Positions 21,701 to 59,278 of a DNA stretch of 64,000 bases are shown in pieces. The DNA comes from an uncultured virus (IMG/VR IMGVR_UViG_3300025154_000083). Lineage: Duplodnaviria; Heunggongvirae; Uroviricota; Caudoviricetes. Position numbers and translations under genes: made by a program. A model generated the notes under the pieces. The model was not told where the DNA came from and did no database searches. It worked only from the letters and a program-made list of their open reading frames with translations. Numbering within the stretch: the stretch's first letter is position 1; each line of letters opens with the position of its first letter. The stretch lies in IMG/VR virus record IMGVR_UViG_3300025154_000083, positions 1 to 64,000 of that record. One strand, given 5' to 3'.

Positions 21701-24700
21701 CCGGTGTTCATTATCGACCAGATAAATCCCGAAACCGGCAAGTTCGATGAATTGAAGGCCGTAGCTGGTGGAAAGGACGAGCAGCAGGCACTAGGAACCT
21801 ACCTTGCCAATTACCCGGAAGGGTGGCAGGGCCTTGGCGCCATAACCGAATTCACCATGCCGGAATTCAAGGCATGGCTCAAGGGCGGCGATGCCACGAA
21901 GCCTGTAGGCAAGAAGGTGCCGAAGGTTATTGAGACCGAGCAGGGCGTAGTGAAGCAGAAGGAGGATGTTGATCTCCCCTTCGCGGCCGGGCTTGCCGAG
22001 CAATTGGCCGAGCGGAAGCGGCTTGACCAGGAGCGCAAGGATCGAGAGCAGGCTGGGAAGGAGAAGGCGGAGAAGGGAAGTGCAGAATCCGAGAAGCCGA
22101 AATGGAAAACACGCATCGATGAAGGCCCTCCGGACTGGAATGCTGGACGCACCGATACCACCCGGTCAGATCGCGGGATGATTGATCCTCGAGAGATAGT
22201 TGGTCTGCCGGGAGAGAATGACGAGCACCTTCTATTCAAGAGAGATCGAACCGGAGGATATGGCACAGCGAAGTGGAATGCTTTCGTTCAGGACGTGAAG
22301 CAAAACGGCGTCAAGGAGCCCATCATCATCTTCAAGGAGAAGGACGGGAAGGTCCATATCTCCGAGGGGAATCACCGTGTTCGTGCTGCTGTTGAGGCCG
22401 GGCTAAAAGACATCCCGGTTGAGATCCGGTATTTCGGAAATTCTCAGCGTGATGGGTTGGTAGTCGATACGGAAACTGGGAAGTTGGTAAAGAAACCAGA
22501 AGCTCCCGCAGCACTGCCCGCCGCCCCTCCCCCCGTAACGCCGAAGCAGACCCGCACCGGGCCGACGGCCGAGACCGCCGCTCGGAAGCCGCTCAAGGAG
22601 AAAGCTGAGCCGGTTGCCGTGGCAGAGAAGGAAGTGGAGGAAGAGCCAGCAGCAAAGGAAGAGCCCCCTCTCTCTTCTCGGCCAACGACATCCTCCCCCG
22701 TTCAACCTGCCTCTTCCACTCCCCCCACCCTAACAGTCTCAGACCTGGACACCAAGTCCATAATCGTGAAGGGCGACTACACTGCGAACAAGGACCGCAT
22801 CGCCCCCGTCTTGAAGCAGCACAGCGGGCTCTACAACGGCAAGCACAAGGGATGGGTGTTCCCCAAGAAGAACGAGGCCGCGGTACGGGCGGCGTTGGGG
22901 ATTGGAGGGGAGAAGGCAGGGAAGGATGAGAATGTCGCAGAGAAGTCTGAGCAGACCGCTCAGCCAGGACCCCAACGAATAATCGTCGGAAAGAACAGGG
23001 ACGGGGATACGATCTACTCCGACGACAAGGGCGCTCGCTACATCCTTGAAGGGGGAATGCGGGTCCAATCCTTTGTGTTGCGTCCAGGATACATCGACGA
23101 GCAGTTCATGACGGTTGAGGAGGTGGAGGCGGAGAAGCCCAAGAGCGAAGACGCTCTTGAACCAGAACCCTCCGCACCTGCCCCGGTCACCCCCGCGAAG
23201 TCCATGGCTGATGCGTCCAGAGAAGAGGAACAAGCTCCTGCCGCATCTTCCAGCCAACGTCTTGCAACCTGGGTAAAAGGGAAGGTCGCGCGGAAGGAAT
23301 CCTTCACCTGGCAGGATCTTTTCTCCGAAGCCGACAAAGCATTCAGTGGAACGCAGGCTCAAGGCAAATACACTCCAAAGGATGCCTATGACGCAATGGA
23401 GATGGGCGTAAATCAGGCTATCCTCGCGTCAGATCTTACTATGAATCCGTCCAACCACACCCTTCAGGAAGCTGAGCAAAAAGTCAAAGAACTTCAAAAC
23501 CTCATTGCCAAGCTACCGACGCAATCCAAGCGTACAGAGGAAATGGATGAATTTCAGCAGTTCTCGACGCCTCCACCCCTGGCCTATCTTGCTTCCTGGG
23601 TTGCGAACGTAAACGAACAAGACACGGCCATCGAGCCATCGGCGGGCATTGGCGGGCTTGCCGTGTTCGCCAAGAACGCAGGTGCAAAAGTCTTCGTGAA
23701 TGAGCTTTCGCCGCGCCGCGCCGCCATCCTTGAAGAGATGGGCTTCGACCGGGTGTTTACCGAGAATGCCGAGCAACTGGACAATGTTCTGCTCGATGAC
23801 GTAAAACCTACCGTAGTCGTCATGAACCCTCCCTTTTCTTCCACGGCTGGACGCATCAAGGGGCAGCGTAACACCATGAATGCGGCTCGGCATATCGAGC
23901 AGGCATTGAATCGCCTTGAAGACCGCGGGCGCCTCGTTGCCATCGTCGGGCGCGGCATGTCGGTGGACGCTCCCTCCTTCCGGGACTGGTTCGCCAAGAT
24001 CGGGAAGAAGTACACCGTCCTGGCCGACATTGGCCTATCGGGAAAGGGATATCAGAAATATGGAACCACGTTTGATAATCGCGTGATTGTCATTGACAAA
24101 ACGGGGCCGGGTTTCGATAATATAATCAAAGGCAGTGTTGAAGATGTGACAGAAGCATTGCCCCTCTTACTTGGAGTGAGAAATGCACGCCAACGATCCA
24201 AGACAAGTCAAGGCGCTGAATCTTCACAAGCTCAACCGGGCCGCGCTCAAGGCGCTCAAGAAGGCCAAACAGAGCCAAGACCCATCGTTACTCCACAGTC
24301 TTCAGTTGATGTTGTGGGCTCTGGACAACAAGAGCCTCGACCTCGACAGCCGGGTAAGCGAGACGGTGAGGTCAATGAGCCGGTGGAGCCCGGAAGAAGT
24401 GATGAAGGTGCTGACGGGGGAAAGCGAGGCGGGAGACCGGGTGGAGCTTCTCCGCAATCCGAGCAAGTCTCCGGTGAGCCAGGCACTCGAGTTGATAGGC
24501 CAGGTCGAGGAAAGGATGATAGCGACCGCGAGGCCGGACTACGCCAGCAACAGCGATTAGAAGTCTCCATGGCCAAAGCCGAAACTCAAGCTGAAGCCCT
24601 CTCAGATTCCGTTTACGACGCATACAAGCCTTCCGTGAAAGTAGCGGGTACCAAAGCGCACCCCGGCAATCTTGTCGAGAGTGCTGCCATGGCTTCCGTT

Positions 24701-27700
24701 GAGGCCCCTCCCGCCGATTATGTCCCGTCAATTCCTAAGGAAGTTCTTGCTGCCGGCAATCTCTCCGATGCCCAGATGGAAACGATTGTGCGCGCCGGGC
24801 AGGCCCACGATACCATCCTTGAAGGTGGGGAGCGGCAGGGGTTCTTTATTGGCGACGGAACCGGTGTCGGCAAGGGAAGGGAGATAGCCGGTGTCTTCCT
24901 CGATAATTGGAACAAGGGCCGCAAGAAAGGTGTGTGGCTCAGCGCAAATTCTTCCCTCTTCAAGGATGCTCGCCGCGACACTGAAGGAATTGGTGACGAC
25001 GCAGAGAAAATCTTTGAGCTTGGCAAAGTCAAGGCAACTTCGTCCATCAACGCCTCCGAGGGGATTCTCTTCGGAACCTACGACACGCTCAAGATGGCCG
25101 CGAAGGGTGAGCAGGGCAAGTCCGGGAAGCGCCGCATTGATCAAGTGGTTGCATGGTTAGGTGCGGATTTCGATGGAGTGATCGCACTTGATGAATCGCA
25201 TCGCGCCGGGAACGCCTTGCAGGTCCAGGGACAGCGCGGACGGAAAGACCCGTCCAAGACAGCACTCGCCGTAATCGAGCTTCAAGACAAACTTCCCAAC
25301 GCACGAGTGGTCTACGTGTCCGCAACCGGCGCAACGGAAGTCATGAACCTTGCCTACGCCAAGCGCCTTGGGCTTTGGGGCACTGGCACTCCCTTTCCTT
25401 CCGTGCAAGCCTTCGTGGGTCAAATTCAATCGGGCGGCATCGCGGCCATGGAGCTTGTGTCCCGCGACATGAAATCCATGGGGAAATATCTTGCCCGCTC
25501 TCTCTCCTTCCACGATGTGACCTATGACAAGCTCGAGCACGTCCTTACCGCCGACCAACGTGACATTTACGACAAGCTGGCCGAAGGATGGCAAACCGTT
25601 CTGAACAACCTGAATGAAGCCCTTCAAGAAACCGGAGTCGTGGATGAAGACGGAAAAACCATGGACGGTCGTGCCAAGAGCGCGGCAATGTCCGCTTTTT
25701 GGGGATCTCATCAGAGGTTTTTTAACCAGATCATCACTTCCATTCAGATGCCTTCCGTCATTTCCAGGATGAATAAAGAGCTTGAGAGCGGGAACGCCTG
25801 CGTGATCCAGCTCGTGAATACGAACGAGGCAAGTCTTGGCCGGGCTATGGCGAACCTGGAAGAAGATGAATCTCTGGAAGACCTCGATCTCACGCCGCGC
25901 GATCAGCTTATGCAGTACATCGAACGGAGCTTCCCCATCTTCCAGTATGAGCAATACGCAGATGAGGACGGGAATGTGAAGAGCCGCCCCGTGTTGGATG
26001 CCAACGGGAACCCGGTTGTGAACCGGACGGCCGAAGCCATGAAGGAGAGGCTTCTCGATCAGCTTGGAAGCATCCGTGTTCCCGATGGGCCGCTTGAAAT
26101 GATCCTGAATGAGTTTGGCGTGAAGGACGTTGCCGAAGTGACCGGGAGAACGCAGCGGGTCGTTACCGATGAATCCGGGAAGAGGGTACGAGAAAAGCGT
26201 AGCAAGGCCAAGACCGAAACCGACGCACAGGCGTTCCAGGAAGGGGAGAAAAATATCCTTGTCTTCTCAACGGCCGGCGGGACCGGGCTCAGTTATCACG
26301 CCGACTTGAAGGCGAAAAACCAGAAGAAGCGTATCCACTTCCTGGTTCAAGCAGGGTGGCGAGCGGATGTTGCAGTGCAAGGATTCGGTCGGACGCACCG
26401 GACCAATCAGAAGCAGGCCCCTCATTATCTCCTGGTTACGACGGACCTTAAAGGACAGAAGCGGTTTCTTTCTTCCATCGCTCGGCGCCTTGACCAGCTT
26501 GGGGCACTCACCAAAGGCCAGAGGCAAACAGGAAGTCAGGGATTCTTCAGCGCACGGGACAATCTGGAAAGTGAGTACGCAACCGAGGCGTTGCAGAAGT
26601 TCTTGAAGAACCTGCTGCATGATGGCGAGATTTCCGGGGTGAGCGTTGATGACTTCGAGCTTCAAACCGGAATGAAGCTCAGGAATGATAATGGTATGCA
26701 GGCGGCGGCGTCTCCACCAATGACGCAGTTCCTGAACCGTCTCCTTTCCTTGAAATACGATACTCAGAATGCCGTGTTTGATGCCTTCTCGAAAGAGATG
26801 GATGCCATTGTTCGACGCGAGATCGAGAATGGAACGCTCGACCAGGGGCTAGAGAACTTGAAGGCCGCGAAGATCGAATTGGTGAGCGAGCAGACCGTCC
26901 ATACCGACGAGAAGTCGGGGGCCGAAACGAAGTATGTGGAGCTCGACGTGTCCAACCCGACGCCCGTTGTTTCATGGGAAGAGAGCGGCAAGGTTGCCAG
27001 GAAGGGATATTACCAGAACCTTCGGAGCAAAAATGTTTGGGGGCGAGGCTCGGAAAAGCTTAGAACCAAGTCGAGCGGTGATGTGGTGAACGAAGCGCTT
27101 CTCACGGCCCCGTCGAGCAGGCATCAAAACGTCGAGACTATTGATCTGGATGACGAGAAGAAGTGGAGGAGGGTAGAAAAAGAAGAGGCTGAAAAGCTAT
27201 GGAACGATGAGTATGACAAGGTTCCCAAGATGGTCACGCAGCGCACACACTTGATCTCTGGCGCCATCCTTCCGATCTGGGACCGGCTTACCGGGAAGGC
27301 GAGGATTGTCAGGATTCAGACCGACAAGGGGCAGCGATTTCTCGGGAGGCTCATCAACCGGGAGGACCTGTCCAATACGCTGAGGAACCTTGGAGCATCG
27401 AGAACGACGGCTGAATACCCAACGGACAGGGCGATTCAACTTCTTGGCCAAGGGCACCGGCTTGAGCTTTCGAACGGGTGGACGGTAAAAGAGTCTCGCG
27501 TGTCCGGGGAAATGAGGATCGAAATTGTTGGGCCGAACTTTAACTTCGATGCGGAGCTTGCGCGGGCCGGGGTTTTCACGGAGCGCGTCAATTGGAAGAC
27601 TCGCTATTTCATTCCTACGGGAACGGATGCCGGGCAGGTTCTGGACAAGGTTACAAAGAGCAGGCCCATTGTGGATGACGTGGCTCCCTTCCAGGGGAGT

Positions 27701-30700
27701 GGGCGTGTTGGCGCAGAAGAGATGGAGGGCGGAAACGCCAAAGAAGAGAGAGAGCAGGAAGATAGGCAAGCACCCACCCTTCAAGGCGTTCCCAAAATCA
27801 AAATCACTAACCCCGAAGAGAAGATCACCCACAAGGCTGGATACTCCGAGTTCTTCACGACCGTAGTTGATGCCGATGGAGGCCAGGCCGCAAAGCGCGT
27901 GAGCGGAAAAGCTGTGAAGGTGAAGGGCCTTCCCGATGGGCGAGAAGCGTTCGCTTACAAGATTGACGGAGCATACCCATGGGTCGTGGTGGACAAGCAG
28001 AGTGGGCTGGCTTTGGCATCTGGTGAAAGGACCATGGAAAATGCCGTATTCACTGCCGAGCTCAGCATTGAAAACGTAGATAAGGAAGAAATGGACAAGG
28101 TATTCGCCGAGTCTGAGCTTGACTTGTTGCCTCTGTATTCATGGCAAGCGCCAGGCGGACAAGGCACCACCAACCTATACTCAGGCTTCCCGGTAGACGA
28201 GTTGATCCGAGAAATCCGCGCGGCCAAGGCCAGCATAGAAGAGTTGATGCCGCGCATCATGCCCCGCCTGACCGACCTGGGAGCCCGTATAATCGCCCGC
28301 GGCCACAACACGGCCCGCACCTTCAAGGAAGAGCTGTCTCGCGTTCTCGGGGACGCCTTCGACGCCGTGCGCCGGTACGTGCTGAAGATCTTCGCCGCCG
28401 CGCAACGGGCTTACGCGAAGCTGCCTGATGCCGTGAAGAATGAGTGGGGGACCTTTGCTGGGCCGAAGGCGCAATGGTGGGACAAGGCCGAGGGAAAGTT
28501 CTCTAGTTTGTATGACAAAAGGGAAAAATTTGAGATTGATGATAGTGGGGCGAGGATAAAGAAAGCAGATGAGATACTGCCCAAGGAGTTTAAGTTCAAG
28601 GAATCTGATGACGGGTTTCATGTTTATAGGAAGGGGAAATTTGAAGGCTTAGGAGTAGACAAATGGAGAGCGGCCGTAGATGTTTCCCAACGATATGGAA
28701 TGACACTTGATGATATTTTGGATCATCCTGAACTTTTCAAACAGTATCCAGAATTAAGGAAGCTGGGACTTACGTTTCTTGAGAATCCTGATGGTTCCAA
28801 AATATCGGGGTCTTATAGTCCCAGATCGAACAAGATTGAGATTCGATATCCGAGCAAAGAGGTGTTTGCTGAGTTAGGTAAAGATCTAAATACGAATCTT
28901 AAAAAAGATCTCCTTCATGAGATCCAGCACGCCATCCAAAAACTTGAAGACTTCGCTCGAGGCGGGGCTCCATTAATTGAAAAGATAAAACAGCAACATC
29001 CAAAAGAGTTTGAAACCGCAATCGACAGAATTAAATCTGAGAAGCCGACATGGACTAGCGTTAGATCCGTTTTTGGTGGAGATGTTGGACAAACGGCAGC
29101 ATTCTCCATTTACAATCGTCTCGCCGGAGAAATAGAAGCCAGGGACGTAGCATCCCGATCCAACCTGACCCCGGAGCAACGCCGGGCAACGCCGCCCTAC
29201 TCTTCCGAAAACATCGCGCCCGAGGACGCCATTGTGCGGTTTGGGGACGGTGAGACTCAGATGGCTGTTGCTCCCAAGGATCTCCCTGAATCAGCGAAGG
29301 CGAAGCTTGCGGGGACTCGGGTTGTTGGGGAGGATGGGGAACCGCTTGCCGTATTCCATGGTGGCGAAGCAGCAATAGGAGAATTCAAAAATAAGCCGGA
29401 CAGGCGAGGCGGCAACGGTGGATTTTACTTCACTCCTAACGCAAGATTGGCCAGCGTGTTTGCGGATCAAGCCGATGTTCCAGGCGTGCATCAGGTTTAT
29501 CTGGCTATTAAAAATCCCAAGATCGTTGATTTTGATACAGGTGCTTCCGCTAATCTTTCCCCTAAAGACATTGCGTCGTTGAAATCCCAAGGCTTTGATG
29601 GGGTAATTGGCAAAAGAGATAAGACTGTCGTTGAATACGTCGTCTTCAACTCCGACCAGATAGTCTCGGCCCTGAGCCCGGAAGGGGAGGCGGCGGGGAA
29701 GCAGCCCGAGCAGCAAGGGCAGCAGAAGCAACCCGAGCAACTTCGCTCCGCCCTAACCCCTCCCCTTCAAAGCGAGCAAGGCGCAATCCGCCTGCCCCAG
29801 CTTCCTAAATTCCCAAACTGGTCTCGCGCCAAAGCTCAACGCGCCTCGACCGGAGACGCCGAAATCGATGCCGCCCTGAACAAAATCGGCCCGGCCCAAA
29901 AAACAACGAAGGAGAAGCTCGACGCCGCTCTCGACAACTGGAAGCTCAAGGCCGAGCAGGGCATTTTCGATAGGTTCGCATCCCTCAAGGCACTTGCGAA
30001 ATCAGCCGGGATCGACACGGCCAGCAACGCATCCAGGATCCAGGAAGACCCATACGTCGCAGCCACCATGACCACATCTCTCGGGGATATGCTGGCGACC
30101 ATGATGAACCACGGCGTGCCCCAATGGAAGGAAGGCGCCGTATGGACCCCAACCAGGAACAAGGGGCTCGCCCAAGTCTTCGAGCCCGTGGCCGACCAAC
30201 TTGACATGTTCCTCGGATGGATGGTCGGAAAGCGCGCCGAGAAGCTCATGGCCGAGGGCCGCGAGAACTACTTCACCGACGCTGAGATCAAGGCACTCAA
30301 GCGCATCATCACCCTTCCCGAAAACAAGGCCAAGTTCCTTAAGGTGGAAGCCGACTACATTGCCTTCAAGAAGGGGGTTCTCGACTTCGCGGAGGCGAGT
30401 GGAGTAATCAACGCCGAAGAGCGTCTTCTCTGGGACCACGACGAGTACGTGCCATTCTACCGGATCATGGAAGAAACTCAAGGGCTCAAAGGGCCACGAA
30501 ATAAAAACTCCGTCGCAAGTCAGTACAGTGGCATCAAGAAGCTCAAAGGCGGTGAATCGAGGCTTGGGGACATATTCGTCAACATCATGATGAACTTTTC
30601 TCACCTCGTGGACGCCAGCGTCAAAAACCACGCAACCGAGCTTTCCATCCAGGCCGCCGAGAAAATGGGTGTTGCGGTCAAAGCCAAGAATCAGTTCAAG

Positions 30701-32470
30701 CCCGCCATTGTTCCGGGGAATCAGATCAAGAAGATAGTCGAGGCCGAGTATGGTCCGCTCCTGGAATCCATGGGTATCGATACCAGCTTGCTCGATTTCA
30801 AGTCTCTTCAGAGCCTGTACCGAATGTTCCAGATGACCAAGCCCCAGGGTCCCGATGTGATTCACGTTTTGCGCGATGGGAAGCCAGTCTATTACCACAT
30901 TCAGGATTCGCTTGTATTGCGGTCGCTCTCGGCGGTGAACGAGCGCCCATGGGGAGGTCCAGCCATGAAGGCCATGCGGACAGCCAAGCGACTCCTTACT
31001 CGGGGCGTCACCGCTGACCCTGGCTTCATGATCGCCAACCTTACTCGAGATACCTTGAGTGCATGGGTGGTTTCCCCCGACTTCAAGGCCGGGGTGGATT
31101 CCGTGAAGGGGGCGATAAAGACTTTTCGTGAAGATGAGGATTATGTGGCGATGCAGGCGTCTGGAGCTGCCTTCTCCGGAGGGTATGCTTTTGGGCATGA
31201 TTTGGAGGCAGCCAAGCGAGAAGTTGAGAAGCTCAACAAGAAATACAAGGTTGACGGGTCAACGGTGCTTAACAGCGTAAAGAAAATGTGGGCGTTCTGG
31301 GAGAAGTTTGGAAGCCGATTCGAGAATGCGACCAGAACACAGATTTATGCCAATATCCGAGCCCGTGGCGGTGCTCACGTCGAAGCGGCCTATGAAGCCA
31401 AGCGCATCATGGATTACTCGAAGCGCGGTGACTGGATGACCATCAAATTCCTCTGCGAGACGGTTCCCTTCTTCGGGGCCAGGCTCCAGGGAGCGCAGCG
31501 CCTTTACCATGGATACCGCGAGAACCCCAGGGGGTTTGCCACGAAGGGGATGATCCTCATGGGGGCTACCCTTGCCTTGTATGCCATGAATGCGGATGAT
31601 GACAGGTATAAGGAGCTTGAGGAATGGGATCGGGACAACTACTATCACTTCTTTGTCCTTGATGAGCATTTCCGTCTCCCCAAACCCTTCGAGGTGGGCG
31701 CCATCTTCTCCACCATCCCGGAGAGGCTGGCCGAGTGGTGGCTTGGGGAAGGGACTTCGAAAGAGTTTGCCAGGCGCATGCTGTTCACGCTGAATCAAAC
31801 TTTCTCGTGGCAGCCTCCGCAGCTCATTGGGCCAATGATTGAGCAGTATGCCAACAAGAGCTTTTTCACTGGACGTCCAATTGAGGGACAGTCCCTGCAA
31901 GCCTTGCAACCAGGAGCGCGCCGCGACCCATGGACCGGGGAAACCGTGTCCGTGATCGGGGAAGCCACCAACGTTTCCCCTAAGAGGATGGAGGCCTTCA
32001 TGCGCGGCTACTTCGGGACGCTCGGGACATATGCACTTATGGCGTCCGATGTCGCCGTGCGATGGATGTATGATTATCCGGACCCTCCAGCTAGCCGCCT
32101 GGATGACCTTCCTGTCATTCGCCGGTTCGTTCAGGAAGACCCGGCCCGCCACACCAAGTATGTCACTTCCATGTACGAGATGATCCGCGAGGTTGACCAG
32201 CTTTATGCCACGGTCAGACGCTATGAGAAAACCATGGAGCCAGGAAAAGCTGGAGAGCTTATCGAGCGGGAACGACGTAAATTGACATACAAAGACACTT
32301 TTAATAAGGTGCAAAGACAATTCAGTATGATTGATCAGGAGATCAGAAACATTCATCTTCGTAGGGATCTCACGCCAGAAATGAAACGGAAAAGTATTGA
32401 TGAGCTTACAAGAAGCAAAAATGAATTAGCCAGAGATGTTTATGATAGCACCAAGGCTGCGTTCAAATGA
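18740..32470 (+). CDS. Giant polyvalent (DarB-like) virion protein, 4576 aa
   Basis: Approximate domains: lysozyme-like 19150-19520; inorganic-PPase-like 21400-21900; ParB/Srx (EGNHR) 22180-22450; N6-adenine MTase (IEPSAGIG, NPPF) 23500-24180; Strawberry-notch helicase (GDGTGVGKGR, DESH, GRTHR) 24580-27700; LPD23 plus zincin HEIQH 28440-29260; ART-like 29300-29670; LPD38-like 31400-32250. Confidence 0.9.
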   Translation: MAYDGRLIDEMAAELLGPPATAATQPATATTPIDTALPEAPAAPASPLPTAAAPTIQSDPMGTTEQPFIPSQASPVFQAPQASPTSPIPTTFKASQIDALAEQLFGPAPEPRTTRRTTSRGLAGGLSDGSIDVGPQGGVVRGYDISRYATDPRHEQSVARYANELSSLSSIEAIDTHIQSVAPGSPVTGSMVASSASRYNVDPFVVLALMRQDSSYGTRGKGARTFNPGNVGNDDAGNMKNFGDWQQGVDAVAGWLSRHKAGAGSEGQGSRGIEGQGLLGLQPFTANAPPASLETRRRALGLIGMQTPEDIAAQKRREAWESAVDDMATELLGPPGVGMADAGKGGSLFGDIESGHTAGGPDAAETYLRAGRVMGVDTSSMLSDLEAKRKRWTLEKPSKAAQEEGMGGYRKWAYEGARSFSHSVSTRLPATVTGALFGGAAGALAGYVTSGAALFGLAEYDRFMEDAEKLGIPREEAYDEAVVAAIAETAFEASSDLLEMKMLKLFGGNLTEPVKGLIRRYVGNVLKIAPVEIATEAPTAAVQAAARESAGMPTPTPGQAALESIPSTAATSLFFAGLGTAAQGRRGQGGTGGEGGAGSEDTGDTGQPATPPSGPKGFPELQRVERIGIEAPQERFGLPAPPEGYPGEPAPEGVPRLPSPTQNWRMMVPDLRGMNRDQMLEYADSRKISLKDRSNKLKIFNSIKAYYDQINPSQLVTGEAATRTPVRQGVQEERYSPEAILARPEVPTPGGPAQRTTPTPQTAARQPLAMPQQEPQQEPQEAMKGEAPDAQGIRSDEGQVYPGGNVQGQGAGEGGQDLEFPKSEEPGGEAARQGTAEEVGQGEPAGLEGQTTREGLEGEAPPLQGQQSEQENPVSIAQQSLKTPLDIAAHEAASSPLNDKPQPTTPQIKADNAELGHFSFQGIPISIESPIGSVRKDVNHDPPKWQRVIKEAHYGRIKGVRGRDKDLLDVFVRTDNLTGDKTLDAKLPVFIIDQINPETGKFDELKAVAGGKDEQQALGTYLANYPEGWQGLGAITEFTMPEFKAWLKGGDATKPVGKKVPKVIETEQGVVKQKEDVDLPFAAGLAEQLAERKRLDQERKDREQAGKEKAEKGSAESEKPKWKTRIDEGPPDWNAGRTDTTRSDRGMIDPREIVGLPGENDEHLLFKRDRTGGYGTAKWNAFVQDVKQNGVKEPIIIFKEKDGKVHISEGNHRVRAAVEAGLKDIPVEIRYFGNSQRDGLVVDTETGKLVKKPEAPAALPAAPPPVTPKQTRTGPTAETAARKPLKEKAEPVAVAEKEVEEEPAAKEEPPLSSRPTTSSPVQPASSTPPTLTVSDLDTKSIIVKGDYTANKDRIAPVLKQHSGLYNGKHKGWVFPKKNEAAVRAALGIGGEKAGKDENVAEKSEQTAQPGPQRIIVGKNRDGDTIYSDDKGARYILEGGMRVQSFVLRPGYIDEQFMTVEEVEAEKPKSEDALEPEPSAPAPVTPAKSMADASREEEQAPAASSSQRLATWVKGKVARKESFTWQDLFSEADKAFSGTQAQGKYTPKDAYDAMEMGVNQAILASDLTMNPSNHTLQEAEQKVKELQNLIAKLPTQSKRTEEMDEFQQFSTPPPLAYLASWVANVNEQDTAIEPSAGIGGLAVFAKNAGAKVFVNELSPRRAAILEEMGFDRVFTENAEQLDNVLLDDVKPTVVVMNPPFSSTAGRIKGQRNTMNAARHIEQALNRLEDRGRLVAIVGRGMSVDAPSFRDWFAKIGKKYTVLADIGLSGKGYQKYGTTFDNRVIVIDKTGPGFDNIIKGSVEDVTEALPLLLGVRNARQRSKTSQGAESSQAQPGRAQGAQEGQTEPRPIVTPQSSVDVVGSGQQEPRPRQPGKRDGEVNEPVEPGRSDEGADGGKRGGRPGGASPQSEQVSGEPGTRVDRPGRGKDDSDREAGLRQQQRLEVSMAKAETQAEALSDSVYDAYKPSVKVAGTKAHPGNLVESAAMASVEAPPADYVPSIPKEVLAAGNLSDAQMETIVRAGQAHDTILEGGERQGFFIGDGTGVGKGREIAGVFLDNWNKGRKKGVWLSANSSLFKDARRDTEGIGDDAEKIFELGKVKATSSINASEGILFGTYDTLKMAAKGEQGKSGKRRIDQVVAWLGADFDGVIALDESHRAGNALQVQGQRGRKDPSKTALAVIELQDKLPNARVVYVSATGATEVMNLAYAKRLGLWGTGTPFPSVQAFVGQIQSGGIAAMELVSRDMKSMGKYLARSLSFHDVTYDKLEHVLTADQRDIYDKLAEGWQTVLNNLNEALQETGVVDEDGKTMDGRAKSAAMSAFWGSHQRFFNQIITSIQMPSVISRMNKELESGNACVIQLVNTNEASLGRAMANLEEDESLEDLDLTPRDQLMQYIERSFPIFQYEQYADEDGNVKSRPVLDANGNPVVNRTAEAMKERLLDQLGSIRVPDGPLEMILNEFGVKDVAEVTGRTQRVVTDESGKRVREKRSKAKTETDAQAFQEGEKNILVFSTAGGTGLSYHADLKAKNQKKRIHFLVQAGWRADVAVQGFGRTHRTNQKQAPHYLLVTTDLKGQKRFLSSIARRLDQLGALTKGQRQTGSQGFFSARDNLESEYATEALQKFLKNLLHDGEISGVSVDDFELQTGMKLRNDNGMQAAASPPMTQFLNRLLSLKYDTQNAVFDAFSKEMDAIVRREIENGTLDQGLENLKAAKIELVSEQTVHTDEKSGAETKYVELDVSNPTPVVSWEESGKVARKGYYQNLRSKNVWGRGSEKLRTKSSGDVVNEALLTAPSSRHQNVETIDLDDEKKWRRVEKEEAEKLWNDEYDKVPKMVTQRTHLISGAILPIWDRLTGKARIVRIQTDKGQRFLGRLINREDLSNTLRNLGASRTTAEYPTDRAIQLLGQGHRLELSNGWTVKESRVSGEMRIEIVGPNFNFDAELARAGVFTERVNWKTRYFIPTGTDAGQVLDKVTKSRPIVDDVAPFQGSGRVGAEEMEGGNAKEEREQEDRQAPTLQGVPKIKITNPEEKITHKAGYSEFFTTVVDADGGQAAKRVSGKAVKVKGLPDGREAFAYKIDGAYPWVVVDKQSGLALASGERTMENAVFTAELSIENVDKEEMDKVFAESELDLLPLYSWQAPGGQGTTNLYSGFPVDELIREIRAAKASIEELMPRIMPRLTDLGARIIARGHNTARTFKEELSRVLGDAFDAVRRYVLKIFAAAQRAYAKLPDAVKNEWGTFAGPKAQWWDKAEGKFSSLYDKREKFEIDDSGARIKKADEILPKEFKFKESDDGFHVYRKGKFEGLGVDKWRAAVDVSQRYGMTLDDILDHPELFKQYPELRKLGLTFLENPDGSKISGSYSPRSNKIEIRYPSKEVFAELGKDLNTNLKKDLLHEIQHAIQKLEDFARGGAPLIEKIKQQHPKEFETAIDRIKSEKPTWTSVRSVFGGDVGQTAAFSIYNRLAGEIEARDVASRSNLTPEQRRATPPYSSENIAPEDAIVRFGDGETQMAVAPKDLPESAKAKLAGTRVVGEDGEPLAVFHGGEAAIGEFKNKPDRRGGNGGFYFTPNARLASVFADQADVPGVHQVYLAIKNPKIVDFDTGASANLSPKDIASLKSQGFDGVIGKRDKTVVEYVVFNSDQIVSALSPEGEAAGKQPEQQGQQKQPEQLRSALTPPLQSEQGAIRLPQLPKFPNWSRAKAQRASTGDAEIDAALNKIGPAQKTTKEKLDAALDNWKLKAEQGIFDRFASLKALAKSAGIDTASNASRIQEDPYVAATMTTSLGDMLATMMNHGVPQWKEGAVWTPTRNKGLAQVFEPVADQLDMFLGWMVGKRAEKLMAEGRENYFTDAEIKALKRIITLPENKAKFLKVEADYIAFKKGVLDFAEASGVINAEERLLWDHDEYVPFYRIMEETQGLKGPRNKNSVASQYSGIKKLKGGESRLGDIFVNIMMNFSHLVDASVKNHATELSIQAAEKMGVAVKAKNQFKPAIVPGNQIKKIVEAEYGPLLESMGIDTSLLDFKSLQSLYRMFQMTKPQGPDVIHVLRDGKPVYYHIQDSLVLRSLSAVNERPWGGPAMKAMRTAKRLLTRGVTADPGFMIANLTRDTLSAWVVSPDFKAGVDSVKGAIKTFREDEDYVAMQASGAAFSGGYAFGHDLEAAKREVEKLNKKYKVDGSTVLNSVKKMWAFWEKFGSRFENATRTQIYANIRARGGAHVEAAYEAKRIMDYSKRGDWMTIKFLCETVPFFGARLQGAQRLYHGYRENPRGFATKGMILMGATLALYAMNADDDRYKELEEWDRDNYYHFFVLDEHFRLPKPFEVGAIFSTIPERLAEWWLGEGTSKEFARRMLFTLNQTFSWQPPQLIGPMIEQYANKSFFTGRPIEGQSLQALQPGARRDPWTGETVSVIGEATNVSPKRMEAFMRGYFGTLGTYALMASDVAVRWMYDYPDPPASRLDDLPVIRRFVQEDPARHTKYVTSMYEMIREVDQLYATVRRYEKTMEPGKAGELIERERRKLTYKDTFNKVQRQFSMIDQEIRNIHLRRDLTPEMKRKSIDELTRSKNELARDVYDSTKAAFK
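21105..21257 (+). CDS. Candidate nested +1-frame gene, 50 aa
   Basis: AAAGGAG RBS then MPKGYEAMRDRFIREGMSRDKAQEKAAKIWNSQNPRNPVGKRHVKEPPKK. Overlaps a low-complexity linker of the giant ORF. Confidence 0.5.
   Translation: MPKGYEAMRDRFIREGMSRDKAQEKAAKIWNSQNPRNPVGKRHVKEPPKK
24183..24560 (+). CDS. Candidate nested +1-frame gene, 125 aa
   Basis: GGAG RBS and a globular helical-looking sequence spanning the linker between MTase and helicase domains. Confidence 0.5.
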   Translation: MHANDPRQVKALNLHKLNRAALKALKKAKQSQDPSLLHSLQLMLWALDNKSLDLDSRVSETVRSMSRWSPEEVMKVLTGESEAGDRVELLRNPSKSPVSQALELIGQVEERMIATARPDYASNSD

Positions 32471-41210: not shown

Positions 41211-41936
41211 ATGGCGGATATCGATGGTATGGACAGCAAGGACAGCACGGACAAGGCATGCAACACCGGCAAGACGTTGAGCATGAATACGTTTGGAGGG
41301 GGTCGGATCATAAGAGCGCGCAAGCCCTTTCTCACCTCAATCGCGGCACAACTCACCATGAGCCAGGCGGTGCAGCGCGGGATGACGGTCGAGGAGATCC
41401 AGGGCTATCTCGAAGGGGCGTTCTCCACCCTTCTCGGAATGAGGAAGAGGGAGATGGAAGAACTTTCCGTGAGCAGAAGAGATGGTGGCGGGATCTCTCT
41501 TTTCTTTCCCGGCTTCCATCCATCCTTCAAGGACAAGCTCGGAAAAGAAGGCCTTGAAGGGGAAGATTTTGACGCCTCTCTCTCCACTCCCAACTCTGCT
41601 TTCCCCGCCATCTCCCCAACTATCTCCCCTGCCGACTCCATCCAGGAAGACAAGGTAATCTGCCTGGAATGCGGGAAAGAGTTCAAGCAGCTCACGCAGA
41701 AGCACCTCTTTCTTCACGGCCTCTCTCCCAAAGAGTACAAGCAGAAGCACGGGATGAGGCTGAAAACTTCCCTCATGGCCAAGTCGTTGTCCGCGGCGAG
41801 GTCCGAGGCTGCGAAAGCGAGGGGTGTGCCTGAGAATCTGAAGGCGTTTCAGGAGGAGAGAAGACGGAAGAAGGTGGTGGAGGGTGGGAAGGTGCCGATG
41901 GATGGGGAGGCGATGGGCGGCGATGATGGCAAGTAA
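41211..41936 (+). CDS. mucR: Ros/MucR-family transcriptional regulator
   Basis: SIQEDKVICLECGKEFKQLTQKHL..HGLSPKEYKQKHG prokaryotic zinc finger, RBS AAAGGAGG. Confidence 0.85.
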   Translation: MADIDGMDSKDSTDKACNTGKTLSMNTFGGGRIIRARKPFLTSIAAQLTMSQAVQRGMTVEEIQGYLEGAFSTLLGMRKREMEELSVSRRDGGGISLFFPGFHPSFKDKLGKEGLEGEDFDASLSTPNSAFPAISPTISPADSIQEDKVICLECGKEFKQLTQKHLFLHGLSPKEYKQKHGMRLKTSLMAKSLSAARSEAAKARGVPENLKAFQEERRRKKVVEGGKVPMDGEAMGGDDGK

Positions 41937-42264: not shown

Positions 42265-42448
42265 CGCAGCAATCCAATCAGCGGCTCCGAGAGCACCACT
42301 CCGCAAGAGCGACCGGCGCATAGGTCTGAAGGGTGTCGTGTACCGCGCCGAATGCTGGAGCCGCTTTAATCATTTCTCTTCTTTCTCTTTATCCGGCAGG
42401 GAGGGATGTCTAGTAGAGATGGATATCTAGTAGGAAGGGATACAAACC

Positions 42449-42692: not shown

Positions 42693-42721
42693 TTGCATTC
42701 ATACTTGATTTGAGGCATACT
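42693..42721 (+). promoter_or_regulatory. Sigma70-like promoter
   Basis: TTGCAT-17-CATACT. Confidence 0.6.
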
Positions 42722-42784
42722 CTCCAAACCAAACAACAACCGGGAGCCTCCGTAATGGCTATTTTTGTTTCAAGACATTCAGTT

Positions 42785-42855
42785 AGCGTCAGGGAACCGC
42801 ATATCGTAAGGTATGCGGGGGCCGTTGTTGGTCCGGTACCCCCTGGCGCTTTTTT
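42785..42855 (+). ncRNA. Three-stem RNA resembling C4/CI antisense RNA or an attenuator
   Basis: Closing stem AGCGTCAGGG/CCCTGGCGCT plus T-run, hairpin CCGCATATC-GTAA-GGTATGCGG, and hairpin GGGCC-GTTGTT-GGTCC. Confidence 0.55.
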
Positions 42856-42868
42856 ATTGGGGGATACC

Positions 42869-43390
42869 ATGCCTCAGCACGTCAAGGAAGGTCCGTCGAA
42901 ATATTGTGAGCAATGCGGAAAGAAAATGGAGAGAAAGTATTACAATGGAAGGCGTGAAGATTTCACGCGATTCATGGCAAGACGATTTTGTGACCTGACA
43001 TGCTCTGGATTATCCATAAGAGGCATAAGGGTTTTGAATGAACAAACAAGCCGAGCACGATCTGCAAAATTTGCCAAAACAGAATGTGAACAATGCGGCG
43101 GGAATGAGTACCTCCAAGTCCACCACAAAGACCACGATCCACTAAACAACGACATCAGAAATTTGATTACCCTTTGCATGTCATGTCACGTAAAGGCTCA
43201 TCATGCAGAATGGCTATCCAAGAACGCAAACAGGACTTGTGAGTATTGCGATTCTCCAGTCAAGGGTCTTGGCTTGTGCATGAAGCACTATCAAAGAGTC
43301 AAAAAGCACGGTGATCCATTTCTTGTAGTAAAGCGATTACCGGGAGATGCACCTGGAGCCAAGGGACACCTGGTTCGGGTTGCTGACTGA
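42869..43390 (+). CDS. HNH endonuclease with zinc-finger modules
   Basis: CEQCG..LQVHHKDHDPLNNDIRNLITLCMSCH and GLCMKHYQR. Start MPQH after GGGGGA. Confidence 0.85.
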   Translation: MPQHVKEGPSKYCEQCGKKMERKYYNGRREDFTRFMARRFCDLTCSGLSIRGIRVLNEQTSRARSAKFAKTECEQCGGNEYLQVHHKDHDPLNNDIRNLITLCMSCHVKAHHAEWLSKNANRTCEYCDSPVKGLGLCMKHYQRVKKHGDPFLVVKRLPGDAPGAKGHLVRVAD

Positions 43391-45181: not shown

Positions 45182-45910
45182 ATGAGGCCTTTAATTTACA
45201 CGCCATCCGGCCGGGCCGGTGAGTATGCCGACCATGGATATGCAGCTAATCTCTACAAGGGCTGCACTCATGGCTGTCTCTACTGCTACGCTCCATTTTA
45301 CGTGAGTCGGAAAGAGTTCCATTCGAAAGTGACCCCGGCCCCCGATGTCCTTGAACGATTGAAGCGGGACATGACGCGAGTCGGCCAGCTTTCCGAACCC
45401 GTGTTCTTGTGCTTCTCGTGCGACCCCTACTGTATCGGCACGGAGCACTGGAGGACAAGGGACGCAATCAAAATCATCACAGACCATGGAAACTCTGTCA
45501 ACATTCTGACCAAGGGAGGAATGGAAGCATGCCGCGATTTTGATCTTTTGTCGGCATCCAACTCTCAGATTGGAGCTACCCTCACGTTTTACAGTAGCGC
45601 CTTGTCGCTGAAATGGGAGCCCAATGCCGCGCTTCCGATGAATCGCATCGAAATGCTTTACCGAGCTCAATCCAGAAACATCCGGACGTGGGCCAGTATC
45701 GAGCCAGTCATTGTGCCGAGCGAGTCGCTGATGATTATGGAGGCCGCCATGCTCTACGTGGATACGTTCAAAATCGGAAAATGGAACCACGACAAACGGG
45801 CGGCCGCCATTGATTGGGGGAAGTTTCTTGAAGATGCCGTGGCCTTATGCGAGCAACACGGAAAAGCTTATGTCATCAAACAGGATCTGTTGAAATACAA
45901 GAAACCTTGA
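45182..45910 (+). CDS. Radical SAM protein (spore-photoproduct-lyase-like family)
   Basis: NLYKGCTHGCLYCYA (CxxxCxxC), SCDPY, ILTK, WEPNA and SIEPVI motifs. Confidence 0.9.
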   Translation: MRPLIYTPSGRAGEYADHGYAANLYKGCTHGCLYCYAPFYVSRKEFHSKVTPAPDVLERLKRDMTRVGQLSEPVFLCFSCDPYCIGTEHWRTRDAIKIITDHGNSVNILTKGGMEACRDFDLLSASNSQIGATLTFYSSALSLKWEPNAALPMNRIEMLYRAQSRNIRTWASIEPVIVPSESLMIMEAAMLYVDTFKIGKWNHDKRAAAIDWGKFLEDAVALCEQHGKAYVIKQDLLKYKKP

Positions 45911-46908: not shown

Positions 46909-46998
46909 GCCTAACATTGGGGCTCAGGCGCGGCGGCCAAGGACTCTGAACCAACGTCTCGGGCTTCCTCCGCCGTCGCCTGCAGCCCTGGGTTATGC
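46909..46998 (-). mobile_element. attC: Integron attC site (90 bp)
   Basis: GCATAAC-CCAGG-GCTGCAGG...CCTGAGC-CCCAAT-GTTAGGC. Confidence 0.85.
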
Positions 46999-47120
46999 CA
47001 TAAATACACCCCCTCACCACCGCCACGCATGGGCCTAATAGCCCCGTGTCTCCCCGAGTGCCCTGGCTCCAACTCACAGGCCACGTGCGGGAACGTCTCG
47101 TTGACAGCTCCACACTTCAT
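46911..47120 (-). CDS. Cassette gene, 69 aa, translated through its attC
   Basis: RBS GGAGG. MKCGAVNETFPHVACELEPGHSGRH...; stop TAG lies in R'. Confidence 0.6.
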   Translation of the reverse strand: MKCGAVNETFPHVACELEPGHSGRHGAIRPMRGGGEGVYLWHNPGLQATAEEARDVGSESLAAAPEPQC

Positions 47121-47137
47121 CACCTCCCCCTTTCGCC

Positions 47138-47230
47138 GCATAACATTGGGGCTGAGCCGAGCGGGCCGTAGTACCACGGACTTCCGTAGCACCACGCGTG
47201 GCCCGCTTCGGCTCCAGCCCTGGGTTAGGC
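47138..47230 (-). mobile_element. attC: Integron attC site (93 bp)
   Basis: GCCTAAC-CCAGG-GCTGGAGC...GCTCAGC-CCCAAT-GTTATGC. Confidence 0.85.
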
Positions 47231-47233
47231 CAT

Positions 47234-47410
47234 TTACTCCGTGATATTAATCCCATCCGAAAACTCGAATTGCGACGGATATATGCCGTATTCTTTCCTG
47301 GCCGCCTCGTTCAAAGCTTTCATTGCCTCCGTATGCTCGCATCCAGTCTCATCTACTTCGAATTCCGCCTCGACCAAGAGATGGGCATAGCCCCACGCTT
47401 TCATTTTCAT
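47234..47410 (-). CDS. Cassette gene, 58 aa acidic protein (absent from ORF track)
   Basis: RBS GAGGAG. MKMKAWGYAHLLVEAEFEVDETGCEHTEAMKALNEAARKEYGIYPSQFEFSDGINITE. Confidence 0.65.
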   Translation of the reverse strand: MKMKAWGYAHLLVEAEFEVDETGCEHTEAMKALNEAARKEYGIYPSQFEFSDGINITE

Positions 47411-47431
47411 TCCGTCTCCTCGGGCCTCGCG

Positions 47432-47524
47432 GCCTAACGTGGCGATAACCCGCGCCGGCCTTAACGGGTTTCCGTAGCACGACTCACGCGCGTGGCCGGC
47501 GTCGGGTTCATTGCTGGGTTAGAC
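47432..47524 (-). mobile_element. attC: Integron attC site (93 bp)
   Basis: GTCTAAC-CCAGC-AATGAACC...GGTTATC-GCCAC-GTTAGGC. Confidence 0.9.
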
Positions 47525-47667
47525 CCCTTTGGCACCCAAGCGTTGGGTGCGGTTGTTCCGCACTTGCGGCACCTCAATGTGGTGCGCGTCACGATAACCT
47601 TTCCGCCGCAGGCGCAGCACGAGATACCTCTGTCGCCCGCCGGGAAACTCACTGTTACCATCACCAC
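47461..47667 (-). CDS. Cassette gene, small zinc-ribbon protein
   Basis: CCACGG...CRKCG with RBS GAGGAGG. The ORF runs into its attC. Confidence 0.6.
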   Translation of the reverse strand: MVMVTVSFPAGDRGISCCACGGKVIVTRTTLRCRKCGTTAPNAWVPKGSNPAMNPTPATRVSRATETR

Positions 47668-47676
47668 CTCCTCGCC

Positions 47677-47784
47677 GTCTAACGCTGCGCATCAGCGGCA
47701 CCGATCACGCGGGCCGAGGACTCGAAGAGACGCAACTGAATTGCCCCCGCGTGGTCGGTGTCCGGCTGCATGCGCTTGTTAGAT
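47677..47784 (-). mobile_element. attC: Integron attC site (108 bp)
   Basis: ATCTAAC-AAGCG-CATGCAGC...GCTGATG-CGCAGC-GTTAGAC. Confidence 0.9.
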
Positions 47785-48530
47785 GATTTGAATCCACGGT
47801 ACCATGCGTCCAGGTATGCTTTGGGTGTGGGCCAGCGAGTCTTGTCTTCGCCAGCCTTGTTCCAGAACCACCATGTGACCGCATGCTCAAAAACCCGATA
47901 ACATCCGGGCCACCTTTGCCTGTGCTGCTTCACCTTACCCATCCCGACCGAGACGATTAAAGGGCACACCATTCAGCCGATCCGGTCAAAGCCCTGGTCA
48001 TACAGTTCGCAAAATGGCAGGCCAAGACCTTCGATGAACTCCCAGACGTGCCATTCGTGCCACTCGAAAATGGGAGAATACTGCCATTTGCCGCGAAACC
48101 TTGAAATCCTCCCACGCTCTTTCCTCCCTGGAGACTCTTCGGCCCGTATGCCAACCAGTTTGTGTTTCAAGGGGATAGCTTTCGTTGGGTCTTTCTTTAG
48201 TACGTCGCAACACCAGCGCTTATTAAAAACGGGAGGAAACTTAGCTCTGATGCCTTCCCACATAGACATGACGGGACGGTAAATACGAGTATCAGGGTAT
48301 GTCTTGAGCCCGAACTTGATCGCCTCAGGTGGATCAATGCCGGTGAAGCTGTGGACCGGAAAGCATTTAACTCCAGCCATTTTCACCAACTCCATGAGCA
48401 CAACTGAGTCTTTGCCGAAACTATTGCAAACCATATACCCCTCAGATGGTTCATGAGCCTGCATAAAACCCACGGACTCAGCGACCACGTTTTGCAATGG
48501 TACTACCGACATTTGCTGTGCTCTTGGCAT
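47679..48530 (-). CDS. PAPS/APS-reductase-family protein, 283 aa if the UGA at 47973-47975 is recoded (candidate selenoprotein)
   Basis: SFGKDS PP-loop, WCCDVLKK, GIRAEES, then RIG*MVCP where the family has R.GC..CP. The two track ORFs abut in frame. Confidence 0.8.
47933..47963 (-). promoter_or_regulatory. Candidate bacterial SECIS element
   Basis: CCUUUA-A-UCGUCUC-GGUC-GGGAUGG-G-UAAGG. The GGUC loop begins 24 nt after the UGA. Confidence 0.65.
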
Positions 48531-48548
48531 TGACTTTACTCTCGCGCG

Positions 48549-48641
48549 GCCTAACTTTGGCGATAACCAGCGGGCACCCTAGCACCGCCGACTGCATAAA
48601 ACCAAGGCGTGGTACCCGTCTGGTTCATTACTGGGTTAGGC
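48549..48641 (-). mobile_element. attC: Integron attC site (93 bp)
   Basis: GCCTAAC-CCAGT-AATGAACC-AGACGGG...CCCGCT-GGTTATC-GCCAAA-GTTAGGC with two extrahelical bases. Confidence 0.9.
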
Positions 48642-48884
48642 TTCCGCAAACGCGAAAACCTTAATGGCCTTTCCGTCAAAATCAACCGTGACCGGGTTGA
48701 GCCCAAAGAGCCCCCCGCCGGCGTAATTGCATGGCCCGCCCGTTTTATCGAAAATCTGCTTATCAGAATTCATCGCTCGTCCCACACAGGAGAAAGCCGC
48801 TTCCCGGTCTGATGCCCCGGCATCCTTCCAATCCTTAACGCTGGCAACGTAGCCACAGGAGGGGCACACAAACTTCCAGCCCAT
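48636..48884 (-). CDS. Cassette gene, VVA0879-like Cys protein, probably N-terminally truncated
   Basis: WKFVCPSCG...FSCVGR...CNYAGGGLFGL. Stop in R''. No clear RBS, and an in-frame stop lies shortly upstream. Confidence 0.55.
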   Translation of the reverse strand: MGWKFVCPSCGYVASVKDWKDAGASDREAAFSCVGRAMNSDKQIFDKTGGPCNYAGGGLFGLNPVTVDFDGKAIKVFAFAEA

Positions 48885-48930
48885 TGGATCTTTCCCGAAT
48901 CGCTGGGTTGTCTACTCACCGAGCCCAACA

Positions 48931-49692
48931 TCACACTTCAATATGACGCCACGTCATACCAACAGCTATGTGAGAAAGATTGGATTTTTTCATATTAAAC
49001 ATCTTTTGTATAATCTTTCTATCAATATTGGCGTTAAGCAGTTTCTTTATGAGCCAAACTTCACCATCTTTCCATTTGGACTTGAAGTGACGCTCTCCAT
49101 AATCATCTGTTTTGTATTTAACTGGCGAAACTTCATCATAAGATATGTCAATGTCTCCCCACAACTCATCTCTTCCTATTCTAGCCGTATGATGAGGAGT
49201 TACTTTGAACATCTTGCCTATTAGTATTGACGGTATTCCAGAAAGCCATAGCTTCTTAATAAGCCACACTTCACCATCTTTTAGTTTACTCCTTCCGCTT
49301 TTCTCTCCACGCAGACCATGCTTTAACTCAGTTTTATATGAATGGATTACATTTTCTTGATGAGTTACCCATTCAAGATTAAAATCAAAATTGTTATTCT
49401 TATTTCCATCTTTATGATTAGCATTTTTGCCACTGGGTCGCTTGCATACAAATGCTTCCAAAACCAAAACATGAATTCTGCAACATTTTACCTTGCCATT
49501 CTGACACAGGGCAACTTGCAAATAGCCCCACTGGTTTGGACATGCAGAAAGTATTATTGGTAATTTCCTTTTTCTCGATCTCACCCTTCCAAAATTCGAT
49601 ACATCATAATCCTGGCACCACCACACTGGAATCCAGGTCTCTTTATTGACCTCTGAGCCTTCTTGCAAGATTTGTAAATCTATTGCTTGCAT
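48931..49692 (-). CDS. NUMOD4/HNH homing endonuclease
   Basis: YDVSNFGRVRS, IHVLVLEAF, NHKDGNK.NN...NLEWVTHQEN and a duplicated KDGEVWLIKKL. AT-rich. Confidence 0.9.
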   Translation of the reverse strand: MQAIDLQILQEGSEVNKETWIPVWWCQDYDVSNFGRVRSRKRKLPIILSACPNQWGYLQVALCQNGKVKCCRIHVLVLEAFVCKRPSGKNANHKDGNKNNNFDFNLEWVTHQENVIHSYKTELKHGLRGEKSGRSKLKDGEVWLIKKLWLSGIPSILIGKMFKVTPHHTARIGRDELWGDIDISYDEVSPVKYKTDDYGERHFKSKWKDGEVWLIKKLLNANIDRKIIQKMFNMKKSNLSHIAVGMTWRHIEV

Positions 49693-58705: not shown

Positions 58706-59278
58706 TCACTCCTTGAACTTTGCCAGCTTTCCGGCGGCGTGAAAGATCTCATGGCAGTCAGAGCACAAAACCACCAAGTCGGTGAGTAACTCATGAAAAA
58801 TCCGCTCATAGGTTCGGTGATGAACATTCAAACCCTTCCCGCCCGCTAGATTTTGAGCGTTGCAGACTTGGCATCGATACTCGGCCTCCTCGAGCTTTGC
58901 GCCTCTTACCGCGGACCACTCGGGGGACATGAGGTATTCATGGTAGATTTGGCGTCTGGTCTTGGGCGGAGGAGGCTGCGACAAAGACTGCGGGGCGGAT
59001 TGAGAAATAATAATTTTGTTCCTTGCCCCCAAAATTACGTATTGAGACCAGCCGAATAACGTACCAACAAGATCTTCCCACTGGCCTTCGGTTATCTCTG
59101 ATTCATTAATATAATGTGTTATCTCATTGAGATTATTGTCGATAACAGAAATCCACGCATCTCTTTCCCTGGATCTTTTATTTTCTTCCAGACATTTTAT
59201 GAAATCATAATCGTCATGGACCTTCTTTTCGTGTGGACTTTCTTCCCTGCCCATTTGAATCAATTCATCAAGCGTCAT
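58706..59278 (-). CDS. HNH endonuclease-domain protein
   Basis: YLMSPEW...CQVC...LNVHHRTY...DLVVLCSDCH. Confidence 0.85.
   Translation of the reverse strand: MTLDELIQMGREESPHEKKVHDDYDFIKCLEENKRSRERDAWISVIDNNLNEITHYINESEITEGQWEDLVGTLFGWSQYVILGARNKIIISQSAPQSLSQPPPPKTRRQIYHEYLMSPEWSAVRGAKLEEAEYRCQVCNAQNLAGGKGLNVHHRTYERIFHELLTDLVVLCSDCHEIFHAAGKLAKFKE

Follow-up and report, generated by a model that had tools for sequence, protein, structure and literature searches.

The closest described systems are bacterial selenoproteins whose SECIS element lies inside the reading frame (bSECIS), such as the UxxC-motif proteins, HdrA, and radical SAM proteins (PMC13188914). They share with the gene studied here an in-frame UGA at a conserved cysteine, selenocysteine/cysteine (Sec/Cys) pairs among homologs, and a small loop beginning with G[G/U] 16–37 nt downstream; unlike the selenoproteins in Table 1 of that review, the present family is found on phage or phage-like contigs and would depend on host machinery. 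Among viruses, two poxvirus proteins were the only proven selenoproteins as of 2019, according to the available part of PMC6769590. The poxvirus selenoproteins (molluscum contagiosum MC066L and fowlpox GPx4) are likewise virus genes with Sec decoding by the host, which in our case is a prediction, but they use a eukaryotic SECIS and are peroxidases taken from host selenoproteins, whereas our gene belongs to a bacterial virus, has a bacterial SECIS-like hairpin, and comes from a family of which no cellular member is known to contain Sec.

With respect to the protein, APS reductase of P. aeruginosa (PDB 2goy) and CysH have the same fold and a CC-X~80-CxxC motif, with residue U186 of our protein at the first Cys of CxxC; the differences are an identity of only about 20%, the lack of a C-terminal catalytic Cys in our protein, and scores far under the family cut-offs. 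DndC, SspD, BrxP, and the PAPS-Dam protein of Vibrio phage P5a also combine a PP-loop PAPS-reductase domain with an Fe-S Cys motif, the last in a phage context, but our protein stands alone with 283 residues, is not fused to Dam, and has no match to the DndC model, and no DndD was found in the phage. Phage arrays of attC sites that lack an integrase (CALINs) have already been published; judging from the available part of PMC9892861, they resemble our locus in having attC-flanked cassettes in a phage genome and differ from it in cargo, since our cassette carries a predicted selenoprotein gene, the end of which extends across its attC.

The window, i.e., the whole stretch of 64,000 nt that was analysed, belongs to a single virus contig of 67,213 bases from an uncultured groundwater phage, with virion, helicase, and primase genes. 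A PAPS-reductase-domain gene (PF01507, phrog_424) lies at positions 47679–48530 on the minus strand, and its product scores 87 bits with Pfam PAPS_reduct against a cut-off of 22.5. Its frame consists of 185 codons, a TGA (codon 186, positions 47973–47975, minus strand), and 97 further codons ending in TAG, which gives 283 residues if the UGA is read through. As had been proposed in the preliminary description, the UGA falls at the first Cys of the conserved R.GCxxCP motif, giving UMVC (read-through peptide FDRIG-U-MVCP), and the residue is predicted to be selenocysteine from the Cys/TGA alternation in homologs. The other features of the protein are a PP-loop variant, SFGKDS, at residues 37–42 (48405–48422), the pair Cys107-Cys108 (48207–48212), and Cys189, the second Cys of (U)xxC (47964–47966), all on the minus strand; the three cysteines are invariant in an alignment of 128 proteins. 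With U186, these cysteines form the motif CC-X77-UxxC, whose residues C107, C108, U186, and C189 correspond in the alignment to the CC and CxxC positions of the P. aeruginosa APS reductase. Promoter and terminator scans gave results at chance level.

It had also been claimed that the frame runs for 97 codons past the UGA. This holds for the open frame up to the TAG; the family-conserved stretch, however, covers only about 62 of the 97 codons, and the last ~35 codons together with the stop lie within the cassette's own attC site. In homologs, the downstream tail has a median length of 67 residues. A model of the window protein predicted from the 128-sequence alignment (overall pLDDT 90.9) is confident up to about residue 250 and poor beyond it, with a pLDDT of about 50 in the last ~35 codons.

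The TGA is not a sequencing or assembly error. The gene is present, letter for letter identical, in an 89-kb IMG/VR record, and positions 47432–49000 are identical in contigs assembled separately from two runs at a depth of about 12; these runs may be those of the source samples, and contigs of two runs of another study do not span the codon.

Alignment of 120 homologs at the UGA position gave the motif R.GC..CP, with Cys at the position in question, in 118 of them; the other two, 61% and 55% identical to the window protein, end exactly before the Cys. Viral contigs, metagenomes, and GTDB genomes were scanned with DNA motifs in which TAA, TAG, TGA, or TGG was allowed at the Cys codon, yielding 3, 10, and 1 matches, respectively. 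All three viral matches and six of the ten metagenome matches are family genes, and they collapse to four distinct genes: the window gene, L003, L005, and L119. The four are 32–49% identical to one another, all have TGA at this codon, and have 62–97 open codons beyond it. No family gene with TAA, TAG, or TGG at the Cys codon was found in the scans of viral contigs and metagenomes, and no family UGA copy matched the exact pattern in 185,579 GTDB genomes (a scan that had no Cys-form control). Five matches lie outside the family, one with TGG and four with TGA from two sequences; two distinct non-family matches of the metagenome scan thus have TGA as well. These were set aside and not counted as UGA genes: L117 has the TGG, L121, L123, and L126 are one sequence with stops nearby, and L122 is a match of only 19 residues (E 0.003).

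The same position stands out among protein ends. An anchor could be placed in 340 of 383 compared proteins, of which 327 (including the read-through window protein) have Cys, one has Met, and 12, forming 9 clusters, terminate immediately ahead of the Cys; at every other position up to 40 residues downstream, at most three proteins end. Four of the nine clusters are the known UGA genes, themselves part of the query alignment, and five are known as protein only. A search restricted to proteins of 71–228 residues gave 9 ending exactly before the Cys among the 120 matches listed. For the second Cys of CxxC, the same scan of viral contigs with a stop or Trp codon gave 0 matches, and a weak check of the CC pair for Sec, made from protein ends, found none.

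These data bear on the possibility that recurrent nonsense mutations have recently turned the UGA genes, copies of an accessory gene that is dispensable, into pseudogenes. One base substitution is enough to convert TGY into TGA, and one protein, P0217, ends at the Cys position but otherwise matches P0242, a Cys protein of full length, without a difference, which shows that a point stop is possible at this Cys. However, the change from Cys to TGG also takes one step, and neither it nor TAA or TAG occurs in the family matches; nor do stops occur at the second CxxC Cys in viral contigs, while the protein ends are concentrated at the UGA position. The peptides after the UGA are 54–79% identical to the best Cys homolog, as high as upstream, the 41 codons after the UGA differ between the window gene and L005 by 17 synonymous and 14 non-synonymous changes, no further lesion was found in any of the four, and identical UGA alleles are present on 6 to 9 contigs. 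It should be noted that P0217, P0241, and P0242 represent one protein that is either split at the Cys or whole with Cys, by polymorphism or error.

Folding of the region downstream of the UGA confirmed the hairpin that had been reported from the sequence, with a GGUC apical loop starting 24 nt downstream. The bacterial SECIS-like hairpin, which fits the published model, occupies positions 47933–47963 on the minus strand, with the upper stem at 47956–47939 (7 pairs, three of them G-U) and the loop at 47949–47946, i.e., beginning at the 24th base past the UGA after a 23-nt spacer. By itself, this hairpin is within chance and becomes significant only across homologs: its z-score is −0.7 to +0.6 in three wide folding windows, −1.2 in a fourth, and −2.4 in a tight one, and a model-like hairpin occurs at 212 of the 2328 TGA triplets of the phage genome. 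A comparison with Rfam gave five matches, all below the gathering threshold and at chance level.

The comparison across homologs was made with the published bSECIS rules (loop of 3–9 nt with G[G/U] in the first two places, spacing of 16–37, MFE ≤ −7.5; PMC13188914, section 5), applied in seven folding windows by our own script rather than by bSECISearch. The controls were 102 Cys genes, comprising L002 and, from the 111 scan matches listed, those distinct genes that had sufficient flanking sequence. The rules were passed by 4, 4, 3, 3, 3, 4, and 1 of the 4 UGA genes and by 6, 5, 6, 6, 5, 4, and 4 of the 102 Cys genes, respectively, which is a significant enrichment in six folding windows (Fisher p ≤ 0.002) but not in one (p = 0.18); the window gene passes in 6 of 7. 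A lax G-loop test was rejected as a discriminator, since it was passed by 4/4 UGA and also 52/102 Cys genes (energy difference p = 0.02). The loops of the four UGA genes are GGUC, GUC, CGGGA, and GUCC with spacers of 23, 19, 25, and 19, and synonymous recoding gave z = −2.0 for the window gene, −2.9 for L003, and about 0 for L005 and L119. Hairpins fitting the model thus recur in three to four of the four UGA genes in six of seven folding windows. Taken singly, every hairpin is within reach of chance, as a pseudogene would allow, but their enrichment in UGA over Cys genes argues against decay, and we consider the pseudogene explanation quite unlikely.

The strongest hairpin among the 106 genes tested was found in a Cys (TGC) gene, L064, downstream of the Cys codon (16 pairs, GGAA loop, spacer 19, −20.8 kcal/mol); it is possibly a fossil SECIS left after a Sec-to-Cys reversion.

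A change of the genetic code of the phage, with TGA read as Trp or Gly, can be ruled out as practically inconceivable. Recoded phages exist, but here TGA is a normal stop that terminates 13 of 44 phage genes, and the frames past those TGAs run only 0–52 codons. Moreover, the phage genes contain 293 TGG codons, the sole internal TGA in 18,459 codons sits at a Cys, and the window has no tRNA genes.

In our opinion, the UGA of the window gene is probably read as selenocysteine by host machinery. That the host would insert Sec had been suggested earlier, and the suggestion gains from the recurrent TGA, the model-like hairpins, and the lack of detectable decoding genes in the phage: no SelA was found in the window's phage record and no tRNA-Sec in four phage records, including the 89-kb one. 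During infection, the host SelB–Sec-tRNA complex would bind the hairpin 23 nt behind the UGA, Sec would be inserted at residue 186, and the machinery would be supplied by the host, with none coming from the phage. The product would be a PP-loop enzyme with a PAPS-reductase fold, as the alignment and the model indicate, and a presumed [4Fe-4S] site CC-X77-UxxC.

A clue to the host comes from one phage gene, which is not a host assignment: for the MucR/Ros gene at 41211–41936 (plus strand, PF05443), the three best-ranked matches that name a taxon are from Syntrophobacteraceae, while most of the 120 matches listed name none. A possible host from this family would fit with S. fumaroxidans having 39 selenoprotein genes, as given in the available part of PMC12013277.

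The same clue points to the main rival for the identity of the decoded residue, namely that the UGA is read as Cys, alone or mixed with Sec, by a host SelC* tRNA-Cys(UCA) with SelB* or by a similar suppressor. In the available part of PMC5389517, selC* and selB* are reported from Syntrophobacterales and Desulfobacterales, and a tRNA-Cys(UCA) was able to suppress an opal codon for Sec when tested in E. coli; but the form with a UCA anticodon and cysS* is described there for a subgroup of Desulfobacterales, and every selC* genome has a full Sec system too. Reading as Cys would also give no reason for the repeated gain of a UGA together with a hairpin, and we regard it as improbable compared with insertion of Sec.

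If Sec is inserted, it would have arisen several times at this Cys in members of the phage family, a new hairpin appearing with each gain. A quick tree of 49 rows, which took in 40 of 270 Cys rows, places each UGA gene among different Cys relatives, and a single clade of UGA genes is rejected (p-AU 1.7e-67). The four hairpins could not be aligned to a common structure and differ in place and sequence, which fits separate origins. Several separate gains are the simplest reading; a single old Sec followed by many losses is less probable, given these differences between the hairpins.

The function of the protein was considered starting from sulfate assimilation, i.e., the possibility that the selenoprotein acts as an auxiliary APS reductase. 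It agrees with the PF01507 score above the cut-off, with the CC-X~80-CxxC motif, and with APS/PAPS reductases being the best structural matches of the predicted model. The last point is weakened by FAD synthase and CysD, which match about as well as the reductases (Z 15–18 and 17–22% identity for all of these), with tRNA thiolases weaker. A C-terminal catalytic Cys is essential in all sulfonucleotide reductases according to the available part of PMC1175818, which also reports that the CC...CxxC motif binds the cluster in APS reductase and leaves three versus four ligands open. In the window protein, the last Cys, at position 210, is not conserved, and no conserved C-terminal catalytic Cys was found, although some Cys occurs within the last 15 residues of 100 of 351 relatives. 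The motif ECG[LI]H, which we take to be the C-terminal catalytic Cys motif of CysH, occurs in 0 of 383 proteins. Scores in bits with the NCBIfam cysH/APS/PAPS models are 43 (cut-off 165) for TIGR00434, 36 (235) for TIGR02055, 27 (254) for TIGR02057, and 51 (154) for NF002537. Without the catalytic Cys and with scores this far below the cut-offs, the protein falls outside CysH and, as judged from its sequence, is not a canonical APS reductase. We therefore hold a sulfate-assimilation selenoprotein to be very unlikely, and APS reduction as the chemistry of the protein to be unlikely as well. The preliminary description had read CC plus CxxC as a [4Fe-4S] motif of the APS-reductase type; the alignment with the cluster motif of APS reductase agrees with this.

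An ATP-dependent DNA modification or counter-defence role has, in our estimate, about an even chance, and another adenylation chemistry is somewhat less probable than that. In the first case, the enzyme would use ATP to activate a nucleotide or nucleic-acid target, like DndC-type proteins and the PAPS-domain proteins of Vibrio phages. Available parts of the literature report a PAPS-Dam fusion, encoded by a phage, that enables escape from Dnd (bioRxiv 2021.05.05.442762) and discuss phage PAPS-domain genes as anti-defence genes or as genes of unknown function (PMC13551039, PMC11437467, PMC8175902). The window protein itself gave no match to TIGR03183 (DndC) at E ≤ 0.1 and a weak, partial match to the BrxP domain (E 2.4e-15); no DndD was found in three phage records and no C5 methyltransferase in the window's phage. 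Around 77 viral Cys loci, 33 of 142 neighbouring frames have a Pfam match; DNA methyltransferases make up 10 of the 33, at 9 of the 77 loci (raw counts with no background rate), and sulfate-assimilation families 0 of the 33. Among the 383 proteins, the PP-loop sequence SGGKDS occurs 276 times, SFGKDS 18 times, SYGKDS 6 times, and SDGKDS once, and homologs in 20 annotated phages are all about 30% identical or less.

The [4Fe-4S] cluster of the window protein is predicted from the motif, and Sec could either serve as a ligand of the cluster or act in catalysis. Of the four cysteines of the motif, no other has been found as UGA, which suggests a reactive thiol or selenol at this position rather than a plain ligand, and in DndC the cluster is held by three cysteines (available part of PMC10853773). 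On this basis, we tentatively propose, as a possibility with the odds against it, that phages of Sec-using anaerobes repeatedly evolved a selenoprotein of their own in which Sec is the reactive selenol of a three-Cys-ligated cluster and speeds sulfur or selenium transfer. If so, the sulfur- or selenium-transfer step of a phage DNA modification or anti-defence system would work only in Sec-competent hosts.

Of the mobile-cassette setting given in the preliminary description, the cassette structure was borne out by attC scans. Sites resembling attC, with the end consensus RYYYAAC...GTTRRRY, flank the gene on the minus strand: that of the preceding cassette at 48549–48641 forms the upstream boundary, and that at 47677–47784 closes the gene's own cassette. 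The single ORF between them and the hairpin folding of the consensus ends identify an integron cassette. Three further attC-like sites follow within 46909–47524 on the same strand, at about 46909–47000, 47138–47230, and 47432–47524, of which only the last passed a stricter scan. No attC was found around L003, L005, or L119, and the cassette setting is peculiar to the window copy among the four UGA genes; a derivation of the L002 tail from attC was not supported by the attC scan. The contigs of four runs contained no joint skipping the window cassette. A 37-base attC end at 47425–47461 is exactly common to several other contigs whose depth exceeds that of the phage, a hint that the host or other phages may carry cassette arrays of the same attC type.

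A sister phage, G002, is 77–95% identical to the window phage over shared blocks and lacks the window's cassette. Each of the two phages has one family gene, and both genes have UGA, but that of G002 is 48% identical, non-orthologous, and located at another site, after its MucR gene (G002:C1:67412-68285, no attC found); the corresponding slot in the window, at 42379–42442, is empty. L005 and L119 are surrounded by replication genes of the phage type; the metagenome contig with L119 is presumed to be viral.

Taken together, our results describe a well-supported predicted selenoprotein family of phages for which we found no prior description. The PF01507 family is absent from Table 1 of a 2026 review of 119 selenoprotein families, the available text of which mentions neither PAPS nor phages nor viruses (PMC13188914); the main texts of BSepDB, deep-Sep, and bioRxiv 2022.07.06.499078 have no passage on PAPS; and a literature search for phage selenoproteins or this family, mostly outside subscription journals, returned nothing relevant. 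If the prediction is correct, it adds a family that the current catalogue lacks, and phages draw on host SelB and tRNA-Sec. The repeated, independent changes from Cys to Sec, each with a SECIS formed anew, would then offer a rare setting for asking why Sec is used over Cys, and Sec would single out one residue of the phage "cysH-like" proteins, which are common but still lack an explanation. Such proteins are often counted as sulfur-metabolism genes, and gene callers cut the UGA genes at this codon. An in-frame UGA with a SECIS could also act as a host-range marker for uncultured phages.

Several other observations were made near these genes. A C5 DNA methyltransferase gene, L128 (G003:C1:8263-10317, minus strand), precedes the UGA gene L005 at a distance of about 1.3 kb; it is apparently broken by an HNH-bearing insert and contains two additional codons, of which one is a TGA that is in frame but does not fall at a Cys. 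In the window, HNH endonuclease genes are present at 42710–43390, 48931–49692, and 58706–59278, one of them adjoining the cassette array. A gene at 18740–32470 (plus strand) encodes a polyvalent protein of 4576 residues with Strawberry-notch helicase, inorganic pyrophosphatase, ADP-ribosyltransferase, ParB, and LPD38 domains. Finally, the radical-SAM-like gene at 45182–45910 (plus strand), shared at 67% DNA identity with the phage carrying the L005 UGA gene, codes for another Fe-S protein close to the cassette array.
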